From contig CALURI010000013.1 of the NCBI GenBank assembly GCA_944323135.1, positions 1,039 through 65,038 of the forward strand: a DNA stretch of 64,000 bases. The letters are read 5' to 3'. The notes under the pieces are model-generated. The model searched no databases. It worked only from the letters and a program-made list of their open reading frames with translations, and was not told where the DNA came from. The DNA comes from Candidatus Gastranaerophilales bacterium (GTDB taxonomy: Bacteria > Cyanobacteriota > Vampirovibrionia > Gastranaerophilales > Gastranaerophilaceae). The position numbers were made by a program, and so were the translations under genes. Positions 937 to 40,111 of the stretch are shown piece after piece (position 1 is the first letter of the stretch; each line of letters begins with the position of its first letter).

Positions 937-1668
937 ATGCTGATATTTAATAAGAAATTTTTTGCATTTACTTTGGCGGAAGTTTTGGTAACTTTAGGGA
1001 TTTTAGGAGTTGTTTCCGCAATGACTATGCCTACATTGATGTCAAATCATCAAAAGAAAGTTTATGCTGTTGAGATGAATAAAGTTTATAATGAGCTTCA
1101 ACAAGCATTTATGAAATATAAAAATGATCAAAATGCAGTAACTTTATCTGAGGCTGGGTTAACATCTCAGGCAACTGTAAACCAATTTTTGAAAGATTAT
1201 TTCAAAACAGTTACTGTTTGCGACAAGCTTGAGCCTCCTTGTATTCCAAATACTGAATATAAAAATTTAAGAGGTTCTTCTGTCTCGGGCGGCGGTGTTG
1301 AAAATGTTAAAAATTGGTGGGGTAATGTAAATTGTGCTATTTTAGGAAGCGGTGCAAGCATCTGCATTGAAGCTTTGTCAAACCATTCTTCTAATGGTGT
1401 TAAATGGTCACATATACTTGTTGACACAAATGGTATGAAAAAACCAAATACTGCAGGAAGGGATGTTTTCTTTATTGCATATTATGAAAACGGCACTATT
1501 GATGAAGAAGGTGTTGTTCCTGTATGTGATGCTATGAAAATATGTACATTACCGACTGATGCGGCTGATAAAAGAGAACAGTTATTTAATAATATGTGTA
1601 AATCAAGTACTCGTTTCAGAGGTTGTTTCGGAAAACTAATAAATGATAATTGGGTAATGAATTATTAA
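937..1668 (+). CDS. Type IV pilin-like / pseudopilin protein with prepilin N-terminal cleavage-methylation motif
   Basis: N-terminus MLIFNKKFFA|FTLAEVLVTLGILGVVSAMTMPTL has Glu at +5 and a hydrophobic helix. The C-terminus GKLINDNWVMNY is shared with the paralogue at 34171. Confidence 0.8.
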   Translation: MLIFNKKFFAFTLAEVLVTLGILGVVSAMTMPTLMSNHQKKVYAVEMNKVYNELQQAFMKYKNDQNAVTLSEAGLTSQATVNQFLKDYFKTVTVCDKLEPPCIPNTEYKNLRGSSVSGGGVENVKNWWGNVNCAILGSGASICIEALSNHSSNGVKWSHILVDTNGMKKPNTAGRDVFFIAYYENGTIDEEGVVPVCDAMKICTLPTDAADKREQLFNNMCKSSTRFRGCFGKLINDNWVMNY

Positions 1669-1690: not shown

Positions 1691-4657
1691 TTATATTTTA
1701 ATGTTATTCATTACACAAAAAGTTGAAAGAGCTTTTGATGCTTGTTTAAGTTCTTTGAATACAGAATTATTTTTGGTTTGGACAATAACTTCTTCTGCTT
1801 GTGAATACATTTTTTGTGCAGCTTCAAGGTATTCTGTTTGTTGAGGAGATCTTACAAGTCCAAGTTCTTGAAAATATTTGCCATATAAAATATAAAGTCT
1901 TGAAAGAAGTTCATTAAGGTTGTATCTTTTTGCCAGAGCAATTGCTGTTTCCAGATTAATTTTTGCGGTTTCAAAATCAGAAGTTGTAATTGCGCATTGT
2001 GCAATTGTCATCCTAAATAGAATTATAAAGAAATAATTATCTATTTTAGGATTTTGAGCAACTTCAAGAGCTTGTTCAGCAATTTCAAGAGCGTTTTCCG
2101 GCCCTTCAGTCACGAGTGTTGCATCTGCAATTAAATACCAAGTTAAAAGTGCTCCTACTGCCATTTTTTCTTTTGCAAAATAAGCTATTTGATCGTTATA
2201 AATTTCGATTGCTTGTTTTGTATTGTCATTATCTTTAAATACTTTACCAAGAAGTGTTTTTAAAATATTTTTTGTAAAATTATCTCCGTTATTATTCGCA
2301 AATGTTACTATTTGGAATAAATCTTCTTGAATACCGTTATATTGTTTTCTGAAGAAATTATTTATTATGTTTATGAAATTCCATTTTAAAATGGTTTCAT
2401 TATCCATAATATTTTCACGGTATGATTTTAAAACTTCTTCAAGCATTTGTTCTGAAGCTTTAAAGTTCCCTTTCATAGTATTTGCATAGGCAAGTGTAAG
2501 TTTACATTTACATATAAATAATTCATCTTGAATTTGATTTCTTTCAATAATGTCGAAAAGTATTGTTAAAATTTCAAAAGATCTGTCATTCCCTTGCATT
2601 ACAAGCGCATTTGCAAGAATCAGATAGATTTTAAGCCAGTTTTCGTACATGAATATAAATTGCGGATCTTTAACATTGTGTTTTTTATTAAAATACTGAT
2701 CCAAAACAGGCATAATTTCGTTATCTATCATATTAATAACCTGTCCGCAATTTCCGATATTTAAAAGTGCATTTAATTTTGTTATTTTAACAAGAACTGC
2801 TTCTAAGGTATTTTCAGGTTTAATCTTACTTAATACGGAATCTACACATTCAACTTCTCCAAAATAATTTCCGGTTTTTCTGCAGCAAAATGACAAATAT
2901 GCAAGCAGTTCTATTTCTTTTGGACTGTCACCGACAGCTTGGGCATTTGAGATAGCATCAGGCAGGTATTCTATTGCTTCAATAGGATTTGAATTAGCAA
3001 GAAGTTTACCTAGTCTTTCCGAGATATTATATCTTATTTTTAATGTTTGGCTTTCATCAAATTCATTAATTAATGCGAGTGATTGTTTTTGTGATATTGC
3101 ATATAAATTCATATCACCTATATATGATGCAAAACGGGTATTTTTAGTCCATATATCAAGTGCTAATCTTGTCTCTTTAAGGTTTTGTGCGATAATAGCC
3201 AGTATTGCATTTGAGTTAAGTGTAAATTCTTTTAAATATTTGAAAATTCTTTTATTTATTTGAGCGTAATGAATATCATTTTTTGCAGTTTTTACAATAG
3301 TTTCCCACAGCATAAGAGAGCTGAATTCACAATATATATCATTTAAAGGAGTTATATAATCCATTTTTTTCAAATAAATCATAATCTCTCTAAATTTTGT
3401 ATCATCTATTTCAAATATTTCTTTTATAAGATTCATATTGATTTTATCGCCAATCATGGCAGAACCCAGAAGTATGTCATAAGCAACGGGGTTAAGATGT
3501 GATAGTAACGACAGCCTGAATTCCAAAAGACCTGCAAAACTTGTTGCAATTTCAAATTCTGTTCCGCTTAATTGGCAGTCGAAGCATAAATCAAGAGCGT
3601 GATTTATATACGATGGATTTCCTTTACTTATTTTATAAATTTCTTCTAGTTCAAAAATATTTAAATTTGGAAAACCTTCAATTTTGTTTGTTTTTTGTTC
3701 AACAAGCATGTTTATTTGCTTGAATTCTAATGGCGCAATGCCGACATCAAGATATATATTGTCATCTTTAACTTGCGGGAAGTAAAAATATCCTTTAGCT
3801 GGTTTTGATTCGTTATATAGTAAAAGCAATTTTAAATTGTCCCAAACATTGTCTTTTTGTATATAACGGCTTATAAATTCATAAGAAAATCCGTCAATAA
3901 AATCAAAATTATCTATTACAAATATAAATTTTCCTGTAGATGTTATCTTGTCAAATATTTTGTTTATAAAAGTGAAAGTATTGTGCTTTGAAGACAATAT
4001 ATCTTCAAATTTTCCTTCTTTGGCAGGATAGAGAAAATTGATTAAATCAAATATTTCATTATTATCAAGTTCCGGAAATTCATTTTTCAAAAATTTGGAG
4101 GCATCTTTTTTAAACTGCAAATTTGCAAGGCAAAAATTCGGTAAATTAAACAGATTTAATAATATATCTTGAATAAGTCCGCCTGGTGTAATTTGAGTAA
4201 TAGGTGTACATTTACCGTAAAGCCAAGAATAGTTTTTGTTATTAAAATCATGCATTAATGCTTTTAAAACAACAGTTTTACCTATTCCTTTTTCACCGTT
4301 TAAAGAAAATATTTTTTTATCTTTAGATAAAATACCTTTAACAAGGATATTTTTAGCATTTTGTTGTGAAACAAGATTTGACGGATATTCAAGTTTAATT
4401 TCCTTATGATTGTCAGTTTCAGGGGAAATTTTGGAAAAAGTATAACCGCATTTTCTGCATTTTTCTACATTAGGAAAATTAACGCTGTTGCAATTTGGAC
4501 AAATACGTAAGATTTCATTGCCGCAGTTTTTGCACTTAAAATCAAAAATTGAATTAACCGTATTACAATTTTTACAGATTAAACCTGTACGGGTTTTGCA
4601 ATACGGACACTTCAGAACATTGTCAGGAATTGTTTTTTTGCATATTGGACATTTCAT
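1691..4657 (-). CDS. Zinc-ribbon / P-loop NTPase / helical-repeat (STAND-like) protein
   Basis: There are 8 CxxC pairs in the first ~72 aa (CPICKK..CPYCK, CKNC..CKNCG, CPNC..CRKCG). Walker A is GEKGIGKT. A Walker-B-like FIFVIDNFDFID is present. About 650 aa of TPR-like helical repeats follow. It is the last gene of the operon with 4671-5267 and 5280-8339. Confidence 0.75.
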   Translation of the reverse strand: MKCPICKKTIPDNVLKCPYCKTRTGLICKNCNTVNSIFDFKCKNCGNEILRICPNCNSVNFPNVEKCRKCGYTFSKISPETDNHKEIKLEYPSNLVSQQNAKNILVKGILSKDKKIFSLNGEKGIGKTVVLKALMHDFNNKNYSWLYGKCTPITQITPGGLIQDILLNLFNLPNFCLANLQFKKDASKFLKNEFPELDNNEIFDLINFLYPAKEGKFEDILSSKHNTFTFINKIFDKITSTGKFIFVIDNFDFIDGFSYEFISRYIQKDNVWDNLKLLLLYNESKPAKGYFYFPQVKDDNIYLDVGIAPLEFKQINMLVEQKTNKIEGFPNLNIFELEEIYKISKGNPSYINHALDLCFDCQLSGTEFEIATSFAGLLEFRLSLLSHLNPVAYDILLGSAMIGDKINMNLIKEIFEIDDTKFREIMIYLKKMDYITPLNDIYCEFSSLMLWETIVKTAKNDIHYAQINKRIFKYLKEFTLNSNAILAIIAQNLKETRLALDIWTKNTRFASYIGDMNLYAISQKQSLALINEFDESQTLKIRYNISERLGKLLANSNPIEAIEYLPDAISNAQAVGDSPKEIELLAYLSFCCRKTGNYFGEVECVDSVLSKIKPENTLEAVLVKITKLNALLNIGNCGQVINMIDNEIMPVLDQYFNKKHNVKDPQFIFMYENWLKIYLILANALVMQGNDRSFEILTILFDIIERNQIQDELFICKCKLTLAYANTMKGNFKASEQMLEEVLKSYRENIMDNETILKWNFINIINNFFRKQYNGIQEDLFQIVTFANNNGDNFTKNILKTLLGKVFKDNDNTKQAIEIYNDQIAYFAKEKMAVGALLTWYLIADATLVTEGPENALEIAEQALEVAQNPKIDNYFFIILFRMTIAQCAITTSDFETAKINLETAIALAKRYNLNELLSRLYILYGKYFQELGLVRSPQQTEYLEAAQKMYSQAEEVIVQTKNNSVFKELKQASKALSTFCVMNNIKI

Positions 4658-5279: not shown

Positions 5280-8200
5280 TTAAAAGTATATGATAAGACT
5301 TAAATTGAAATCAGGGGTCTTAATCTCACTGCTAGGCGGTTTTACGACACTTAATGTATTTTTAACAGATTGTAACACAATGTTATCAATTTGTGTTGAG
5401 CCACTGCTGGAAACAATTTTTGAATCTAAAATATTTCCGTCTTTACTTAATTTTAAGCTAACTTTTACCTGATTTGTATATGCATATTCATTTGCAAGCA
5501 GTAAATCTGCAGAAAGTGATAATTTTATACTTTTACCTGCTGTTCTAAAATAATTTTGCATTTTAGGATTATATGAAAGAGTGTTTGGTACATCCCATAC
5601 GAGTTTATTTACATCCATATATGCACTTGTTTTATTTTGTTTTGGTTTAAGCGCTGTATTTTTTAATTCTTTAGTTGTTTGATTTGTTGCTATTGTTTCT
5701 TTTACGTTATTATTATTTAAATCAGGAACATTGGTTGCAAGTGTATTTGATTCAGCAGAAGTCGGTTCTGTAGAAGCCGATTCTGATAGAGGGCTTTCAT
5801 TGACTTCAGCTCCTGTATTTTGTGATGTAATAGGTTCTATATCACCAATAGTATCATCTTTTGGCTTTAATATCATAACTGCTGATGCTGCTGCTATAAT
5901 TGTGATTAAAGCAGTGGTAATCAGTATTGCACCTTTATTATTGCGTGATTTTTTATTGTACAGAGCTGCTCCAGGAATATTTTGCATCTGATTTTCATCA
6001 ATTGGTTCTTGTTCTTCTGAATTAAACTCTTCCATATTGTCAAGTTCTGCATCTGTTACAGGATCAGTATCATTAAATAAGACCCCTATGTTATCATTTT
6101 CAGAGTCGACAGGTTGATTATCATCATCATTATTTAGGAGTTCATCAATTGATGTATCATCAGTATTTTCAGCAGAATCCAAATTTCCAGATATAGAAGG
6201 CATATCATCTTCTAATTCAGGAGTATCTGTTAATTCTGATATTTCCGGAATTGAATCAAAATCTTCACTTGAAATATTTTCGTTACTTTCTTCTAATCCA
6301 TTTTCATCTTGTGTGTTTTCAGCTATAGCATAAGATTTATCAGATGATGTTAAAATATCATCAACTTGAGATAATAAATCATTAGAAGATATGTTTTCTG
6401 CATTTTTTTGAGTTATTTCAGTATTATCAAGATTTAAATTTTCTATTGATATATCATCAAGATTTTCAGATGATAAATTTTCAAGAAGGTTTTTACCAAA
6501 GCCTTCATTATTTGTTGATGGAATATCTTCTGCCGGTAATGTATCTTCTACTATTTCCGGTTCTTGATTTAGTGGTTCCGAATTAGTTTCAGTAGTGGAA
6601 ATAATATTATCTGGAGTGATTTCTTCATTAATTCCCGTATTATTTTCAAGATTTTCTGTTAAGTCGGTTGTATCCGGTTGTTCTTCTAAATTATTATTTT
6701 CCGGCAGATTTGTTTCTTCTTCTATATTATCCAGTGTTAATGTATCATCAAGAAAGTCATCCATTTCTTCATTTTCATTAATAATTTTATCAGTGTTTGC
6801 TTCTTCTTTGCTTTCTTTTTCATTGTCGAAAGATTCAAATGAAATGGTTTCTTCTTGATAATTTTCTTCCTTGTCTTGGGAGATATTTTCTTGTTGAATA
6901 TTATCAAAAGAAATCACATTATCAACTGTATCAATGTTGGAGGAATCTATTTCTGGGATATTATTTGAAATATCAATATTATCTAAAGATATTGTTTCAT
7001 CTGAGAAATTTTCTTCACTGTTAAGAGGTGTGACATCAGATATGTTTATATTATCTAAAGATATTTTTTCTTCATTTAAATTTAATGGAGCAGGTTCTTC
7101 TAAAGATTTTTCAATATCCGGTACATCGTTGAAAGAAATTTTATTGTCAATAGAGTCAATATAGTCAGTTTGTACGGTATTTTCAGGTATTTCAACATCA
7201 TTTAAAGATATTGGGTCTTCTTGGAAAGTTTCTTCAGAAGTTTCTATATTGTCAAGTTCAGTAGTGTCAATATTTTCAAATGAAATAGATTCATTATCTT
7301 CAATATTTGATGTATTTGCTGATAATTCAGAATCCCCGTCAGGTAAATCAGTGAAATCTAGTGCAGTTTCTGCTAAATCAACACTTTTATCAATAGTATT
7401 AAAAATTTCATCTGCCGCTTGAGCACCTGCAATTGCTGCAGCTCCCTCGATAGCTGTTTCTGCAATATCTGATATAATATTGTCAGTGTTTGCGTTATTA
7501 AACTCTTTGTGGCTTTCAACAGATTGTTCAGAAGTAAGATTTTCAATATCTTCAAGATTGCTTATTGCTTCTTGTGTATTTGTTTCTGTCAAATTTTCAA
7601 TTTCATTGGCAGATAATTTTTCTTCTATATTTTTACGATCAATTTTTGGATCTGTCATTGCTTTATATGAAAGTGTTTCAAAATTTTCATATTCTAAAAA
7701 TCTGTCTCTTAATTCAGCACTTTTCGTAAGTTGTTGAATTAAATATTTTTTATCGTTTTCAGAAATATCATTATCAGCCATTGCGATAATAATGCGTTCA
7801 GAATTTGTCAATTCTTCATCTGATAATTTTTCTGATGTACTGCCTTTGAAAGATTCAATATAATGTTTTAAATCTTTCACTGAATTTAATTTTTCTTTTT
7901 CAATAAAATAATATTTGTCATTAGCATTATTTTTATTTATAAGTTTAGGTTCGAAGAATCCTAAAAATTTCACATGAGAAAAATCTTTTGCAAGGTTTAA
8001 TACAAGGTAAATATCGGGAACAAGATTATATTCAAAATGAGATTTAGGAATAAATATTACATTTTCATCAAAAACAACTCTTACATCAATGTGAATATTC
8101 GGGAGCATTATATCAGAAATGTCTATTTCTTCAAGAATTTTTTTAATTGAATGGATATTGTGTATATTTGAAATGTCAATATTTTCTGCTGCAAGATATT

Positions 8201-8339
8201 TTAATGCAAGCTCTGCTCCTAGAGTATTTATATATGCTCTGTTTTTAGTATCTTTGTGTGCAAATGCGTTAGCTGCAACGCTTGCATCATGTTTATCCTG
8301 ATTTTCAATGTAAATTAATGTATCTTGTTCTGTAACCAT
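5280..8339 (-). CDS. Giant acidic single-pass membrane protein with a TonB-C-terminal-like domain (possible anti-sigma-like partner)
   Basis: 1019 aa. Layout: ~190-aa N-terminal globular part, ~600 aa of D/E/N/S-rich low complexity with ISLDNI-type repeats, a TM helix GAILITTALITIIAAASAVMIL (aa ~803-824), and a C-terminus VKVSLKLSKDGNILDSKIVSSSGSTQIDNIVLQSV..KPP. That C-terminus parallels the TonB C-terminus in this window (LLFKIAKDGRLLSCSVFKSSGLPGADKAAINAV). Confidence 0.6.
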   Translation of the reverse strand: MVTEQDTLIYIENQDKHDASVAANAFAHKDTKNRAYINTLGAELALKYLAAENIDISNIHNIHSIKKILEEIDISDIMLPNIHIDVRVVFDENVIFIPKSHFEYNLVPDIYLVLNLAKDFSHVKFLGFFEPKLINKNNANDKYYFIEKEKLNSVKDLKHYIESFKGSTSEKLSDEELTNSERIIIAMADNDISENDKKYLIQQLTKSAELRDRFLEYENFETLSYKAMTDPKIDRKNIEEKLSANEIENLTETNTQEAISNLEDIENLTSEQSVESHKEFNNANTDNIISDIAETAIEGAAAIAGAQAADEIFNTIDKSVDLAETALDFTDLPDGDSELSANTSNIEDNESISFENIDTTELDNIETSEETFQEDPISLNDVEIPENTVQTDYIDSIDNKISFNDVPDIEKSLEEPAPLNLNEEKISLDNINISDVTPLNSEENFSDETISLDNIDISNNIPEIDSSNIDTVDNVISFDNIQQENISQDKEENYQEETISFESFDNEKESKEEANTDKIINENEEMDDFLDDTLTLDNIEEETNLPENNNLEEQPDTTDLTENLENNTGINEEITPDNIISTTETNSEPLNQEPEIVEDTLPAEDIPSTNNEGFGKNLLENLSSENLDDISIENLNLDNTEITQKNAENISSNDLLSQVDDILTSSDKSYAIAENTQDENGLEESNENISSEDFDSIPEISELTDTPELEDDMPSISGNLDSAENTDDTSIDELLNNDDDNQPVDSENDNIGVLFNDTDPVTDAELDNMEEFNSEEQEPIDENQMQNIPGAALYNKKSRNNKGAILITTALITIIAAASAVMILKPKDDTIGDIEPITSQNTGAEVNESPLSESASTEPTSAESNTLATNVPDLNNNNVKETIATNQTTKELKNTALKPKQNKTSAYMDVNKLVWDVPNTLSYNPKMQNYFRTAGKSIKLSLSADLLLANEYAYTNQVKVSLKLSKDGNILDSKIVSSSGSTQIDNIVLQSVKNTLSVVKPPSSEIKTPDFNLSLIIYF

Positions 8340-20877: not shown

Positions 20878-22065
20878 TTAATAACCTGATGCTCCAAATA
20901 CGTTATAGTCAAACGTAAATTGAATATCAATACTTGAGCCTTTAAATTCAGCAGGCAGCGGTCTGAAAGGTGCTGTTGCCTGAACTGCGTTAATTGCGGC
21001 TTTATCGGCTCCCGGAAGCCCTGATGATTTGAATACGCTACAAGAAAGTAATCTTCCGTCTTTTGCGATTTTGAATAGAAGAACTACACGTTTGCTTTCA
21101 TTTCCTTTTGGCGGATCCCAATTCATTTTTATACGTCTTTGTAATTCTCTCATATAAGGTCCGAAATCAGGTTCTCTTATGGCATCAATACCCGGTCTTC
21201 CGTTAGGATTTCCCGGCCCAGGATTGCCGTAACCGCCTGTTCCGCCGCCCCCGCCTTTAGCGAGTTTACTGCCAGAACCTCCTGTTGGAGCTAGTGACGG
21301 AGTTGGTGCACTTGAACCCTTTCCGGCAGTAGAAGTTCCACCGCCACCACCGCCTTTAGAAGATGTTCCGGAACCGCTTATTGGTCCTGTTGTGTATCTT
21401 CCTGAACCTGTACCACCTTTAGGAACTGGTACTGCAAAAGGACTTGAAGGTTTTGCTACAGGTTTTGGTGTTGTTGGAGGTTTTATAGACGGTCTGGCTG
21501 TTGGCGGAGCCGGTTTAGCCGCTTGCGGGGCTTTAGGACCTGGTGCCGGTTGTTGAGCCGTCTTTTTCGGAGCAGGAGCTTGAACTTGTTCAGTTACCTG
21601 CTTAACAATTTTTTGAAGCGGATTTTGTGCTGCTTGTTTTGCCGGAGCCGGTTTTTTTGCCGGTGCGGAAGCGGTTTGTTTTATAGCTCCCGGTGCCGGA
21701 GATGGCATAGAGACTTTCCTTTTTGGGTCATGATGCCCGCCTGCTCGTGAATTTATGTCTGCTCTATATGGAGTTTTCGGGTTGATAGGTGTTTCTTCTT
21801 TGTCAACAAGCACAAATTCAATATCATTCATTTTTGGTTTTGGTTTGTCAAATATAGTAAGAGTTATCCCTAACATTCCGAGTATTAAAACTATTAAAGC
21901 CCAAATACCTATTGCAGTGGGATGCAATAATGCTGAAATCAGCATTGATTTTTTTAAGCTGATTGCCTCATCGTCTTTTAATACTGCAGGTGTTGTGTAA
22001 CCTGTATTTGTTTCTTGCTCTTCTTCTTCTATAAAGTTTTCGGTATATTTTCCTATTAAGGACAT
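20878..22065 (-). CDS. tonB: TonB family energy transducer
   Basis: N-terminal TM helix, a long Pro/Ala/Lys-rich and Gly-rich spacer, and a C-terminal TonB domain (YMRELQRRIKMNWDPP...FKSSGLPGADKAAINAV...F). Confidence 0.8.
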   Translation of the reverse strand: MSLIGKYTENFIEEEEQETNTGYTTPAVLKDDEAISLKKSMLISALLHPTAIGIWALIVLILGMLGITLTIFDKPKPKMNDIEFVLVDKEETPINPKTPYRADINSRAGGHHDPKRKVSMPSPAPGAIKQTASAPAKKPAPAKQAAQNPLQKIVKQVTEQVQAPAPKKTAQQPAPGPKAPQAAKPAPPTARPSIKPPTTPKPVAKPSSPFAVPVPKGGTGSGRYTTGPISGSGTSSKGGGGGGTSTAGKGSSAPTPSLAPTGGSGSKLAKGGGGGTGGYGNPGPGNPNGRPGIDAIREPDFGPYMRELQRRIKMNWDPPKGNESKRVVLLFKIAKDGRLLSCSVFKSSGLPGADKAAINAVQATAPFRPLPAEFKGSSIDIQFTFDYNVFGASGY

Positions 22066-25459: not shown

Positions 25460-25732
25460 ATGAACAAAGAAGAATTAGTAAAAGAAGTATCAAAAAAAGC
25501 AAAAGTTTCTCAAAAAGCTACTGCTGACATCATTGCAGCTACTTTAGAAACTATTGAAAAAACTGTATCAAAAGGTAAAAAAGTTACTTTAGTTGGCTTC
25601 GGAACATTCGAACCACGCAAAAGAGCTGCTAGAACTGGTAGAAACCCACAAACTGGTGCTCCTTTGAAAATTGCTGCTAAAACAGTTCCTGCTTTTTCAG
25701 CTGGTAAAAAATTCAAAGAACTTGTTAAATAG
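25460..25732 (+). CDS. hup: DNA-binding protein HU
   Basis: MNKEELVKEVSKK...VTLVGFGTFEPRKRAARTGRNPQTGAPLKIAAKTVPAFSAGKKFKE. The RBS is AAGGAGG. The start was chosen at 25460, not the longer track ORF. Confidence 0.9.
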   Translation: MNKEELVKEVSKKAKVSQKATADIIAATLETIEKTVSKGKKVTLVGFGTFEPRKRAARTGRNPQTGAPLKIAAKTVPAFSAGKKFKELVK

Positions 25733-25756
25733 TTTTTGAATATTCAAAATTTAAGA

Positions 25757-25787
25757 AACAGAGTCTGTTTTCAGGCTCTGTTTTTTA
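25757..25787 (+). terminator. Rho-independent terminator of hup
   Basis: AACAGAGTCTG-tttt-CAGGCTCTGTT followed by a T-run. Confidence 0.8.
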
Positions 25788-25807
25788 TTGAAAAATTTTA
25801 AGAAATA

Positions 25808-25816
25808 TGTTATAAT
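25808..25816 (+). promoter_or_regulatory. Extended -10 element (TGTTATAAT) upstream of the leader mini-ORF and pilin gene
   Basis: Same AAATATGTTATAAT context as the other pilin loci. RBS GAAGGAG and the ATG at 25850 follow. Confidence 0.5.
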
Positions 25817-25849
25817 AAAGATGTTAAAAATAATGAGAAGGAGTTTTTT

Positions 25850-25897
25850 ATGCAGAAATTTATCAGAGTTAAGAATGTCGGGGGGGGGGTGTTTTAA
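25850..25897 (+). CDS. 15-codon leader mini-ORF containing the G10 tract
   Basis: A strong RBS GAAGGAG lies 6 nt upstream. It encodes MQKFIRVKNVGGGVF*. A +1 (or -2) change in tract length would fuse it in frame to the pilin ORF frame, which is open from 25873. Confidence 0.3.
   Translation: MQKFIRVKNVGGGVF
25880..25889 (+). repeat. Homopolymeric G10 tract
   Basis: Ten consecutive G in an otherwise AT-rich intergenic region. It is the only G/C run of this length I found in the window. Confidence 0.95.
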
Positions 25898-25986
25898 GGC
25901 TTCTTTCTTTAAAATTTAGGATTGCAAAAAGTAAAAAAATCTGTTATTATAGTGATATGTATCATTACATAAAAAGAGGATTTTTT

Positions 25987-26688
25987 ATGAAAAGAGGAGC
26001 TTTTACTCTTGCAGAGGTTTTAATTACTCTCGGGGTAATTGGGGTTGTAGCTGCTATGACGATGCCTTCTTTAATTCAAGAGCATAGAGAAAAGGCTACG
26101 GTAGCTAAACTGAAAAAAGTATATTCAACGCTAAATAATGCTTTAATATTGAGTATTAATGAATACGGTCCTTTATCAGATTGGGGAATAACATCGGGTG
26201 ATATTGATAAATCCGGTTCAAATATGTTAGCATCGCGTCTTAAAGAAAATTTAATATCAGTAAAAGACTGTGAAAGTAATGGCGGATGTTTTGGACAAAA
26301 TGCTTATAAAACTCTTGGAAGTGCTAATGAAGCGTTTTCAGGGGATGCAAATAATTTTTCAACATTTGTATTATCTGATGGGACTGCTGTCGGTATTTGG
26401 GGAAGTACCGGATCGACATATGGTTCTATTATAGTCGATATAAACGGTAAAAAAGGTCCGAATACAACAGGTAAAGATGCATTTTGGTTTGCTATACGCG
26501 GTTCATCAATAGTTCCATACGGTATTAAAGATGAATTATCTTATAATAATACGTTTGAAAATTGTATAAATCCTGTTAGTGCTTATTATACTTCAAGAGG
26601 ATGTACTGCTTGGGTTATTTTTAATGAAAATATGGATTATTTACATTGCAAAGACTTAAGTTGGGATGGAAAAACAAGATGTAAATAA
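25987..26688 (+). CDS. Type IV pilin-like / pseudopilin protein
   Basis: MKRGA|FTLAEVLITLGVIGVVAAMTMPSLIQ, with RBS AGAGGA upstream of the ATG at 25987. The DINGKKGPNTTGKDAF motif is shared with the paralogues. Confidence 0.8.
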   Translation: MKRGAFTLAEVLITLGVIGVVAAMTMPSLIQEHREKATVAKLKKVYSTLNNALILSINEYGPLSDWGITSGDIDKSGSNMLASRLKENLISVKDCESNGGCFGQNAYKTLGSANEAFSGDANNFSTFVLSDGTAVGIWGSTGSTYGSIIVDINGKKGPNTTGKDAFWFAIRGSSIVPYGIKDELSYNNTFENCINPVSAYYTSRGCTAWVIFNENMDYLHCKDLSWDGKTRCK

Positions 26689-34170: not shown

Positions 34171-34899
34171 ATGTTAAGGTTTAATTGTCAAGAAAAATAT
34201 GCTTTTACTCTTGCAGAGGTTCTGGTTACATTAGGTATTTTGGGTGTTGTGGCTGCTATGACGATGCCTACTTTAGTCGGGAATTATCAAAAAAGAGCTT
34301 ATGTAACACAGTTAAGTAAAGTTTATAATGAACTTCAGCAAGCTGCTTTAAAATATAAAAATAATAAGAATGCCATAAATTTAAGAGAAGCCGGATTAAC
34401 TTCTCAAGCTGAAATAAAAAACTTTTTATATGATAATTTTAAAGTAGTATCAGATTGTGGTTCTACTGTAAAAGAGCCCTGTTTTTCTTCAAAATATACT
34501 GATTTAAAAGGCAATTCTCATAATGCTAATGATTCTTGGGGAGCTGCTTCTAGTGTTACTTTGGCAAGTGGTGTGAGCATTATATTGGATTACCCTGCAT
34601 ATTATACAAAAACTGTTAACGGAGTTACCTCTTATCACGGGCATATGGTTATTGATGTTAATGGTATAAAAGGTCCAAATAAAGGCGGTAGAGATATATT
34701 TCTTGCAGAATTTTATGATGACGGTTCTATAGATGTTGAAGGTGCAACGCCTGAATGTAAAAATCAAGGAATCTGTGAAGGAAATAAAAGTTTAAAAGAA
34801 ATCAGAGAAGCTTACTATAATGCTAATTGCAGAACTGCAAGATATGGAACAGGTTGTATCGGCAAAATTATAAATGATAACTGGGAAATGAATTATTAA
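34171..34899 (+). CDS. Type IV pilin-like / pseudopilin protein (close paralogue of 937-1668)
   Basis: MLRFNCQEKYA|FTLAEVLVTLGILGVVAAMTMPTLVGNYQK and C-terminal GKIINDNWEMNY. Confidence 0.8.
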   Translation: MLRFNCQEKYAFTLAEVLVTLGILGVVAAMTMPTLVGNYQKRAYVTQLSKVYNELQQAALKYKNNKNAINLREAGLTSQAEIKNFLYDNFKVVSDCGSTVKEPCFSSKYTDLKGNSHNANDSWGAASSVTLASGVSIILDYPAYYTKTVNGVTSYHGHMVIDVNGIKGPNKGGRDIFLAEFYDDGSIDVEGATPECKNQGICEGNKSLKEIREAYYNANCRTARYGTGCIGKIINDNWEMNY

Positions 34900-39517: not shown

Positions 39518-40111
39518 TTAACAATAGTTTTTAAATTGAGAATCATTTGTTCCGAGAGGATAAATTCTGTTTGGATTAAAGCCAAAGCAGAAAACATTTG
39601 GATTCCAGCTTCCTTTTTTGTCATGTGTAGGTTTGTTATCTACATGTACATATAGATTTCCACAATTTGCATTAGGGTTATCTTCTGTACATTTTGATGG
39701 TAAAAGCCACATCCCGACAATTGCTGTTCCATCAGGCATAATATAACCTTTATTTTGATAACCATCTTTTCCTGCCGTATTATGAATGGGTTCATAACCT
39801 GCTTTTTGCAAATATTTCCCAATAATATTAAAAAATTTGTCATATTGCTGAAGTGTTTCTTCTGTATGAATTTTTTCTCCATCTTCATCTTCTTCAGTTA
39901 CAGAATCTTTTAACCCCCAGTTATCAATAGTACCATTTTCCAAAACAGCCATAGCGTAAGCTTGTGAAAATACGCTGTAAAACTTTTTGACTCGTGCAAC
40001 GATTGCTTGTTCTCTGTAATTTTGAATGAGAGATGGCAAAGTTAAAGCTGCGACTACACCTATTATTCCCAGAGTAATTAAAACTTCTGCTAAAGTAAAG
40101 CCTTTTTTCAT
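39518..40111 (-). CDS. Type IV pilin-like / pseudopilin protein
   Basis: Canonical MKKG|FTLAEVLITLGIIGVVAALTLPSLIQNY. The start is at 40111; the longer track ORF to 40345 overlaps the divergent HTH gene and is rejected. Confidence 0.8.
   Translation of the reverse strand: MKKGFTLAEVLITLGIIGVVAALTLPSLIQNYREQAIVARVKKFYSVFSQAYAMAVLENGTIDNWGLKDSVTEEDEDGEKIHTEETLQQYDKFFNIIGKYLQKAGYEPIHNTAGKDGYQNKGYIMPDGTAIVGMWLLPSKCTEDNPNANCGNLYVHVDNKPTHDKKGSWNPNVFCFGFNPNRIYPLGTNDSQFKNYC

Follow-up and report, generated by a model that had tools for sequence, protein, structure and literature searches.

The locus and its G10 run

We analysed a 64-kb stretch of Candidatus Gastranaerophilales DNA, referred to at its full length as the window, in which a run of ten G at 25880-25889 on the + strand lies between a short open reading frame (ORF) and a type IV pilin-like gene; a sequence-only reading of the same stretch had put this run forward as a candidate phase-variation switch. 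The window consists of ordinary chromosomal DNA, encoding tRNA synthetases, EF-G, FtsH, an RND efflux pump and TonB/ExbBD, among others, and its base composition is 32% G+C. No G/C run in the 64 kb other than the G10 reaches 7, a G5 and a C6 being the next longest, and the number of G/C runs of at least 10 expected by chance in the window is 0.0015 (base composition) to 0.003 (first-order model). The earlier remark that the run stands out sharply in an AT-rich region is borne out by these counts. The C6 (54485-54490), the only other G/C run of at least 6, sits inside a minus-strand class I tRNA synthetase gene and is too short to act as a switch. The features that surround the G10 are the following:

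25788..25816, + strand: promoter P1, TTGAAA-17-TATAAT with an extended -10 (TGTTATAAT at 25808-25816); 11/12 consensus matches plus TG
25837..25843, + strand: Shine-Dalgarno sequence GAAGGAG, with a 6-nt spacer to the ATG at 25850; read from the sequence
25850..25897, + strand: mini-ORF of ten codons, the G10 and a TAA at 25895-25897, with the peptide MQKFIRVKNVGGGVF ending at that stop; from the sequence and run-length editing
25880..25889, + strand: G10 homopolymer, the candidate slippage-prone switch element; from its uniqueness in 64 kb and its equivalents in the family
25873..25986, + strand: link between run and pilin ATG, without stops in the pilin frame and predicted to be translated only at run lengths of 8, 11 and 14; from the frame count
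25922..25950, + strand: promoter-like site P2, TTGCAA-17-TATTAT with TG; 9/12 matches plus TG
25975..25980, + strand: internal ribosome-binding site (RBS), AGAGGA, 6 nt ahead of the ATG at 25987 (RBS2 below); read from the sequence
25987..26688, + strand: type IV pilin-like gene of the DUF6613 family, 233 amino acids (aa), MKRGA/FTLAEV...; from TIGR02532, PF20318, AlphaFold and a PDB profile search

The promoter, RBS, ATG, ten codons, G10 and stop described by the sequence-only reading were all located at these positions, as was its second promoter-like element ahead of the pilin start. The pilin frame is indeed open from 25873, being preceded by a TAA at 25870-25872, and the link from run to pilin contains 0 stops in this frame versus 4 and 3 in the others. 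When the run length was edited in silico, G8 and G11 gave continuous ORFs of 278 and 279 aa, respectively, just as had been claimed for the fusion of leader and pilin, while G7, G9, G10, G12 and G13 each led to a stop within 14-23 codons. The mini-ORF peptide resembles the paralogue leaders MLIFNKKFFA/FTLAEV and MLRFNCQEKYA/FTLAEV (here and below a slash marks the predicted prepilin cleavage site). The leader mini-ORF of the earlier reading is therefore present, but it is better described as the 5' end of a prepilin leader, truncated in the off phase, than as a separate regulatory upstream ORF.

An Rfam search of the whole window returned no family at the gathering threshold. Shuffled sequences fold as well as the leader (25823-25990) and the surroundings of the run do (z = -0.3 to -0.8), the RNA around RBS2 forms only a weak A-U hairpin that is not significant, and a terminator scan between run and pilin found none. 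A role of the leader as riboswitch, attenuator or terminator was rejected as unsupported, given folding equal to that of shuffled sequences.

The pilin begins MKRGA/FTLAEVLITLGVIGVVAAMT, with the cleavage/methylation motif including Glu at +5 and a hydrophobic helix; position -1 is Ala, where Gly is the usual residue. It passed the NCBIfam model TIGR02532 (prepilin-type cleavage/methylation; score 18.1, cutoff 16.3) and scored just below the cutoff of Pfam N_methyl (19.7 against 21.2), and its assignment to PF20318 (DUF6613) comes from precomputed hits. The AlphaFold model (predicted local distance difference test score 87.9) consists of a 53-residue N-terminal helix (8-60) followed by eight strands that form a beta-sheet head, which, as modelled, is the usual pilin shape. 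Matches in the PDB profile search were restricted to the N-terminal helices of solved type IV pilins, and a PDB structure search with the pilin model gave no significant match for the head domain (best 1ay2, E=0.13). Prepilin peptidase and pilus-assembly genes were absent among the ~30 window proteins scanned. Pilin-like genes of the same type (AFTLAEV/GFTLAEV, here alternative motifs) also occur at 937-1668 (+), 34171-34899 (+) and 39518-40111 (-). These three paralogues have no homopolymer, have short upstream regions and are dispersed among housekeeping genes; a TGTTATAAT-type -10 stands ahead of two of the three, ~25 nt before the RBS.

Runs at the syntenic locus and across the family

All run lengths given here are those of assembly consensus sequences. 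Among assemblies of the same species (99.9% identical), G10 was observed in 11 of 11, with three single-nucleotide polymorphism (SNP) haplotypes nearby; the contigs reach up to 140 kb, carry the run internally and stem from differing studies and assemblers. The same G10 is found in a lineage at 91% identity (L146) and in all five assemblies of a syntenic sister species at ~85% nucleotide identity (L011, L015, L016, L023 and L104), where P1 is also kept and the ten codons ahead of the run have diverged (MKIIDLLQRR against MQKFIRVKNV). This syntenic G10 is one base short of in-frame. A T/C SNP at 25890 is synonymous in the G11 frame (GGT/GGC) and changes Val to Ala in the G10 frame. When metagenomes were scanned with the pilin, relatives of at most 79% identity were obtained, but not the window species itself.

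For the wider family we took 80 DUF6613-type pilin loci from species-representative genomes; the related genomes are of gut origin, animal and human. Within the 700 nt ahead of the pilin, 37 of the 80 loci have a run of 8-13 G or C (mode 10), and the pilin frame is open from run to pilin in 36 of these 37. An ATG with an RBS precedes the run in 33/37, mostly 21-37 nt away (about 8-11 codons). The layout that recurs in the relatives is therefore that of the window: promoter, strong RBS, ATG, some ten codons, a G/C run and a long stretch open in the pilin frame. Comparison with related genomes, which the sequence-only reading had suggested as a check, thus yielded runs both in the sister species and in nearly half of the sampled loci, retained while their flanks diverge, rather than orthologues lacking a homopolymer. 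Six other internal runs in the sampled loci each stand ahead of another pilin paralogue, to which the link is likewise free of stops, and three more lie at contig ends, where their context is unreadable. Every internal G/C run of at least 8 in ~470 kb of fetched sequence precedes a pilin gene of this type, this set being centred on pilin genes and hence not an unbiased sample.

Stop codons between run and pilin were counted at 46 loci, covering 2184 codons. The pilin frame held 2, both belonging to a single contig-end case, versus 186 and 158 in the other frames. The distance from run to pilin ranges from 25 to 540 nt in the relatives, with no fixed relation to a second promoter. On the coding strand the run is made of G at about two thirds of the loci and of C at one third; the conserved feature is therefore the homopolymer itself, and not Gly or Pro codons, a peptide, or RNA structure or pairing. 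The in-frame allele L056 encodes the canonical prepilin MIMKELRIGPPPAKASDIKG/FTLAEV, the modelled G11 form of L060 reads MKMLLSFVNRGGGHLTASSQG/FTLAEV, and compact off loci, when placed in frame, give leaders that end G/FTLAEV. A change in run length shifted the frame likewise in three other loci that were edited.

Length variation was seen at one related locus, which adjoins an Fe-hydrogenase gene cluster. There, L010 has G11 and encodes the continuous 376-aa protein P0006. This protein and its variants were found on ~7 contigs, and out-of-frame ORF calls, starting downstream of the run, on ~30, among which G10 was directly read in 12. The consensus is in frame at only 3/36 family loci, where one third would be expected at random. 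In a wider set of loci, 27 need one more base, 12 need two more (or one fewer), and 3 or 4 are in frame. Run lengths cluster near 10 and avoid each locus's own in-frame length: loci that would be in frame at 11 are mostly seen at 10, and those in frame at 10 were observed at 9 four times, at 11 four times and at 10 twice. This pattern suits switching at the DNA level with the off state favoured in the majority, and suits a fixed one-base recoding signal less.

Two apparent variants were set aside. The "G13" allele of L134 was not counted as a polymorphism, with ~12 substitutions in 45 nt by the run and 4x coverage. Its substitutions and a 2-nt insertion (535-593) all fall within the 45 nt that precede the run, the remainder being identical to L129; the cluster is probably Illumina error beside a long G run and calls for caution with run lengths at low coverage. 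The variant N-terminus of P0122 (MKKAFTLAEV) is uninformative, its contig having only 31 nt upstream. Several contigs end in or at runs (L020 and L147 at their ends, L045 at 5-15, L069 at 1-10 and L097 at 1-16), and either length heterogeneity or a loss of coverage at homopolymers could produce such breaks.

We also observed several features of the leaders themselves. The closest homologues of the window pilin are annotated with odd N-terminal extensions of 65-143 residues, and public gene calls (P0002-P0009, P0021, P0028, P0064 and P0096) have spurious or arbitrary N-termini of 65-190 residues. These arise because the leader is open in the pilin frame and the true start, beyond the run, is in another frame. 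Long leaders (L140 980-1440; L011 3890-4160; L012 4100-4300) hold GC-rich palindromic repeats resembling repetitive extragenic palindromes or miniature inverted-repeat transposable elements, and one of these elements is a 450-nt insertion bounded, at the protein level, by the direct repeats CKTQMAAGTATL and CKTQVLDGTTTL. All repeat-bearing leaders are stop-free in the pilin frame. A leader that is cleaved off may be a safe harbour for repeat elements, or the repeats may be regulatory. Many relatives (L052, L011 4150-4240, P0028, P0002) have a tandem pseudo-cleavage site (...G/FTLAEGATHV...RRA/AFTLAEV), which looks as if a phase-variable 5' module with its own FTLAE site had been recombined ahead of another pilin gene. 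An ATG or ACG within the "GATHV/GNMHV" motif differs among loci. The perfect or near-perfect palindrome CTACGTACGTAG was seen beside runs in L064 (~4060-4083), L080 (~2410-2429) and L053 (~321-340), where it could serve as an operator or in recombination; a search of the window that allowed up to 2 mismatches did not find it.

Insertion site and 5' region of the window pilin

Three further features define the setting of the window gene:

25460..25732, + strand: gene for an HU-type DNA-binding protein, the upstream neighbour, outside the switch; Pfam Bac_DNA_binding, E=3.6e-31
25752..25787, + strand: intrinsic terminator of the HU gene and left edge of the pilin cassette; 16-bp hairpin, -21.3 kcal/mol, z = -7.0 against shuffles, U-rich 3' arm
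25894..25997, + strand: segment without counterpart in the sister species, holding P2, RBS2 and the pilin ATG; from a homology break

P1 begins directly after the strong HU terminator. An identical HU protein is recorded in 6902 index blocks of the collection searched, including many Gastranaerophilales assemblies. In L143 and ten other Gastranaerophilales assemblies (L148-L157; including the complete genome CP017245), all lacking the pilin, rsmD follows directly after the HU terminator, and on this comparison the whole cassette at 25788-26688 (promoter, mini-ORF, run and pilin) is an insertion. It exactly occupies the space from the HU terminator to the stop codon of rsmD, which is convergent. 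In L145 this HU-rsmD site holds another G10 cassette, whose ORF exceeds 629 aa.

The 5' region of the window gene appears to be a hybrid. Homology to the sister species (L011) stops at 25893, 4 nt past the run, and restarts at 25998, in the FTLAEV region, so that the 104-nt segment 25894-25997 stands in place of a GC-richer leader of ~330 nt. Within this segment, P2 resembles or matches the promoter of the first tract-less paralogue (892-913). The segment was probably derived from the 5' region of another pilin gene, and the window gene resembles a fusion between a phase-variable 5' module and the 5' end of an ordinary pilin gene. In many relatives (e.g. L011 and L060) there is no start codon near FTLAEV, and for them off therefore means no pilin. 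The window gene has its own promoter, RBS and ATG after the run, and off here is therefore probably a basal level rather than zero.

Outside the locus, a TonB-like protein (20878-22065, -) adjoins exbB and exbD and includes a long linker of low complexity in which Pro, Ala, Lys and Gly abound, and a large protein of 1019 aa (5280-8339) likewise ends in a TonB C-terminal domain.

A candidate phase switch, its alternatives and its kin

With moderate confidence, and from sequence comparison, we read the G10 as the probable hypermutable element of a slipped-strand translational phase switch that is currently off and that belongs to a lineage-wide family. Translation would begin at 25850, driven by P1 and the strong RBS, and with G10 the ribosomes would halt two codons past the run, giving the off phase. 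Slippage during replication that adds one G (G11) or removes two (G8), as presumed for the window species, would bring the upstream start into the pilin frame and yield a prepilin of 279 or 278 aa with a leader of 50 or 49 residues, whose peptide across the run would be GGGGVLRLLSLK. A prepilin peptidase would then be expected to remove this long leader at A/FTLAEV. The on state would add strong translation from the upstream RBS. About half of the sampled DUF6613 pilin genes bear a run and nearly all are off in the consensus, which fits a mostly silent repertoire from which rare cells would turn individual pilins on.

The idea that run length decides whether upstream translation reaches the pilin is supported by the recurrent layout, the stop-free frame, the in-frame alleles and the G10/G11 polymorphism elsewhere. 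The locus also has several marks of a contingency locus. G10 lies above the instability threshold for G/C homopolymers (~7-8 or more), the repeat follows the start codon and precedes the main part of the ORF, where a change of one unit alters the frame, and the target, judged by its modelled likeness to pilins, would be a surface or host/phage-interaction gene.

Several observations weigh against this reading. The sequence-only reading had looked to length heterogeneity for confirmation; at the window locus none was found, 11/11 same-species consensuses and 17/17 covering assemblies from three lineages (99.9, 91 and 85%) having G10, and the G10/G11 variation is that of the one related locus. 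The 279-aa form of the window pilin is absent from a collection of 15 billion proteins. Look-ups with the exact pilin are partly biased against G11 alleles, for which gene callers would report a longer protein; look-ups via neighbouring genes are unbiased yet few. For a prepilin, a leader of 50 residues is unusually long. With a promoter-like site and RBS/ATG of its own, the pilin may be made whatever the run length, in which case the switch may modulate output rather than gate it, or be uncoupled. Finally, the 3/36 loci in frame fit selection for the off state, yet leave room for slippage at the RNA level.

The best-surviving alternative, which we nevertheless consider unlikely, is that the switch is uncoupled or vestigial in the window species, with P1, ATG and G10 inherited, the pilin made from P2, RBS2 and the ATG at 25987, and the open 32 codons residual or due to chance. 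The homology break 4 nt past the run and the paralogue-like P2 are as this explanation would have them, RBS2 (AGAGGA, 6-nt spacing) equals the RBSs of the tract-less paralogues and is not masked by strong RNA structure, and the G10 is invariant across all assemblies. Against this, the run, P1, strong RBS and ATG have stayed intact in three lineages, down to 85% identity, and the sole SNP beside the run is silent in the G11 frame. The stop-free link (0 versus 4 and 3) would arise by chance with an estimated probability of ~0.02-0.05, taken from the stop density of the other frames.

Programmed recoding, by slippage of RNA polymerase on G10/C10 or a ribosomal -1 shift on G GGG GGG, would give a fixed minority of fused product and a steady low expression; this we find more doubtful still. 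Homopolymers are known sites of transcriptional slippage, and slippage or frameshifting at homopolymers occurs in Thermus dnaX, Shigella mxiE and insertion-sequence transposases. As at such sites, a short upstream frame here meets a longer one at a homopolymer and the one-base-short state predominates (25/36 loci plus L103 and L104), and the syntenic G10 is strictly conserved over three lineages. However, productive transcriptional slippage sites, like programmed slippage sites generally, are mostly A or T runs, of fixed length and often with a stimulatory structure, whereas the Gastranaerophilales runs are G or C, span 8 to 13 with no fixed slippery sequence, and have no stimulatory RNA structure that could be found, the region by the window run folding like shuffles. 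The frame offset is also mixed, with twelve loci that would need two extra bases (or the loss of one), runs whose in-frame length is 10 occur equally often at 9 and 11, and in-frame DNA alleles exist and are polymorphic.

An effect of the run on transcription, whether as spacer or upstream element for P2 or as a roadblock to transcription from P1, is very improbable. The run does end 32 nt upstream of the P2 -35 element, and the sequence-only reading had offered altered promoter-upstream geometry as a second possibility; this found no support, since the spacing between run and promoter is not fixed in relatives, whose runs lie anywhere from 25 to 540 nt from the pilin, and the sister species is without P2. 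What is conserved is the distance to the upstream ATG together with the reading-frame relation. A sequencing or assembly artefact, such as the poly-G signal of two-colour chemistry, can practically be dismissed: some contigs do break in or beside runs, as listed above, but an identical internal G10 with conserved flanks in 11 independent assemblies excludes a single-assembly error, and dozens of species have equivalents, some of them as C runs on the same strand.

The closest published analogue of the proposed switch that we found is in the sortase-dependent pilus loci of Bifidobacterium breve UCC2003. At bbr_0113 and bbr_1889, the pilin ORF lacks a Shine-Dalgarno sequence and is preceded by a G-tract and a short upstream ORF with strong expression (PMC9187656, Penno et al. 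2022). Off is their default state, with frame and pili regained through slippage at replication; enrichment of the productive length in the mouse gut has been reported, and equivalent G-tracts occur across the genus Bifidobacterium (PMC9187656). Both bacteria are gut commensals, and both arrangements place promoter, Shine-Dalgarno sequence and start on a short upstream ORF, with an intragenic G-tract and an out-of-frame default. The B. breve pilins differ in being Gram-positive LPXTG proteins exported by Sec and encoded at two loci per genome, whereas those of Gastranaerophilales are, by sequence, type IV pilin-like with a class III leader (A or G before FTLAEV) and are scattered as single genes in many copies. 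Many of the Gastranaerophilales relatives, unlike B. breve, also have stop-free leaders of 100-190 codons, and the window locus has an internal start too.

Two pathogen systems share other traits with the locus. In Neisseria gonorrhoeae and N. meningitidis, pilC carries a poly-G tract in its N-terminal signal or leader region and is turned on and off by frameshifting, so that, as here, a G run lies in the leader region of a type IV pilus protein. PilC, however, is a tip-associated adhesin or assembly factor and not a pilin subunit, and is present in one or two copies rather than as a large family; variation of Neisseria pilin itself proceeds by pilE/pilS recombination. Campylobacter jejuni (~30% GC) has poly-G/C contingency loci with runs of 8-13 that cluster at 9-10. 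It resembles the present lineage in its AT-rich genome, outstanding G/C runs and several independently switching surface-related genes. Its targets are mostly glycan, capsule and flagellar modification rather than pilins, and its consensus lengths vary readily by strain, whereas the available assemblies show no variation in the syntenic run here. The mechanism itself is thus already known, being of the classical contingency-locus type familiar from pathogens. No description of phase variation, homopolymer slippage or a pilin system of this kind in Melainabacteria, Gastranaerophilales or Vampirovibrionia was found in the literature searched. New here are the lineage, the gene class (multi-copy, type IV pilin-like single-gene cassettes) and the very long stop-free leaders.

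Taken across the lineage, we lean slightly towards a set of independently switching pilin cassettes, each a single gene with a promoter of its own, about nine initial codons and a G/C run, and nearly all off in the consensus. Their cleaved, stop-free leaders, of up to ~190 codons, would tolerate GC-rich palindromic repeats inserted in frame, and together the cassettes would form a combinatorial, mostly silent repertoire and the first contingency loci to be described in this phylum-level lineage, of which the window G10 would be a live member.

One consequence concerns annotation, as the annotation of many pilin genes of the lineage is wrong, the starts being arbitrary or the N-termini long and spurious. 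Run lengths can moreover be scored in existing metagenomes, which would give on and off states across hosts and time. Gastranaerophilales are widespread, uncultured gut bacteria, non-photosynthetic relatives of the cyanobacteria. A pilin family that is switched individually and stochastically would point to strong fluctuating selection on their surface filaments, for which antibodies, phages that use pili as receptors and changing attachment targets are the likely sources.

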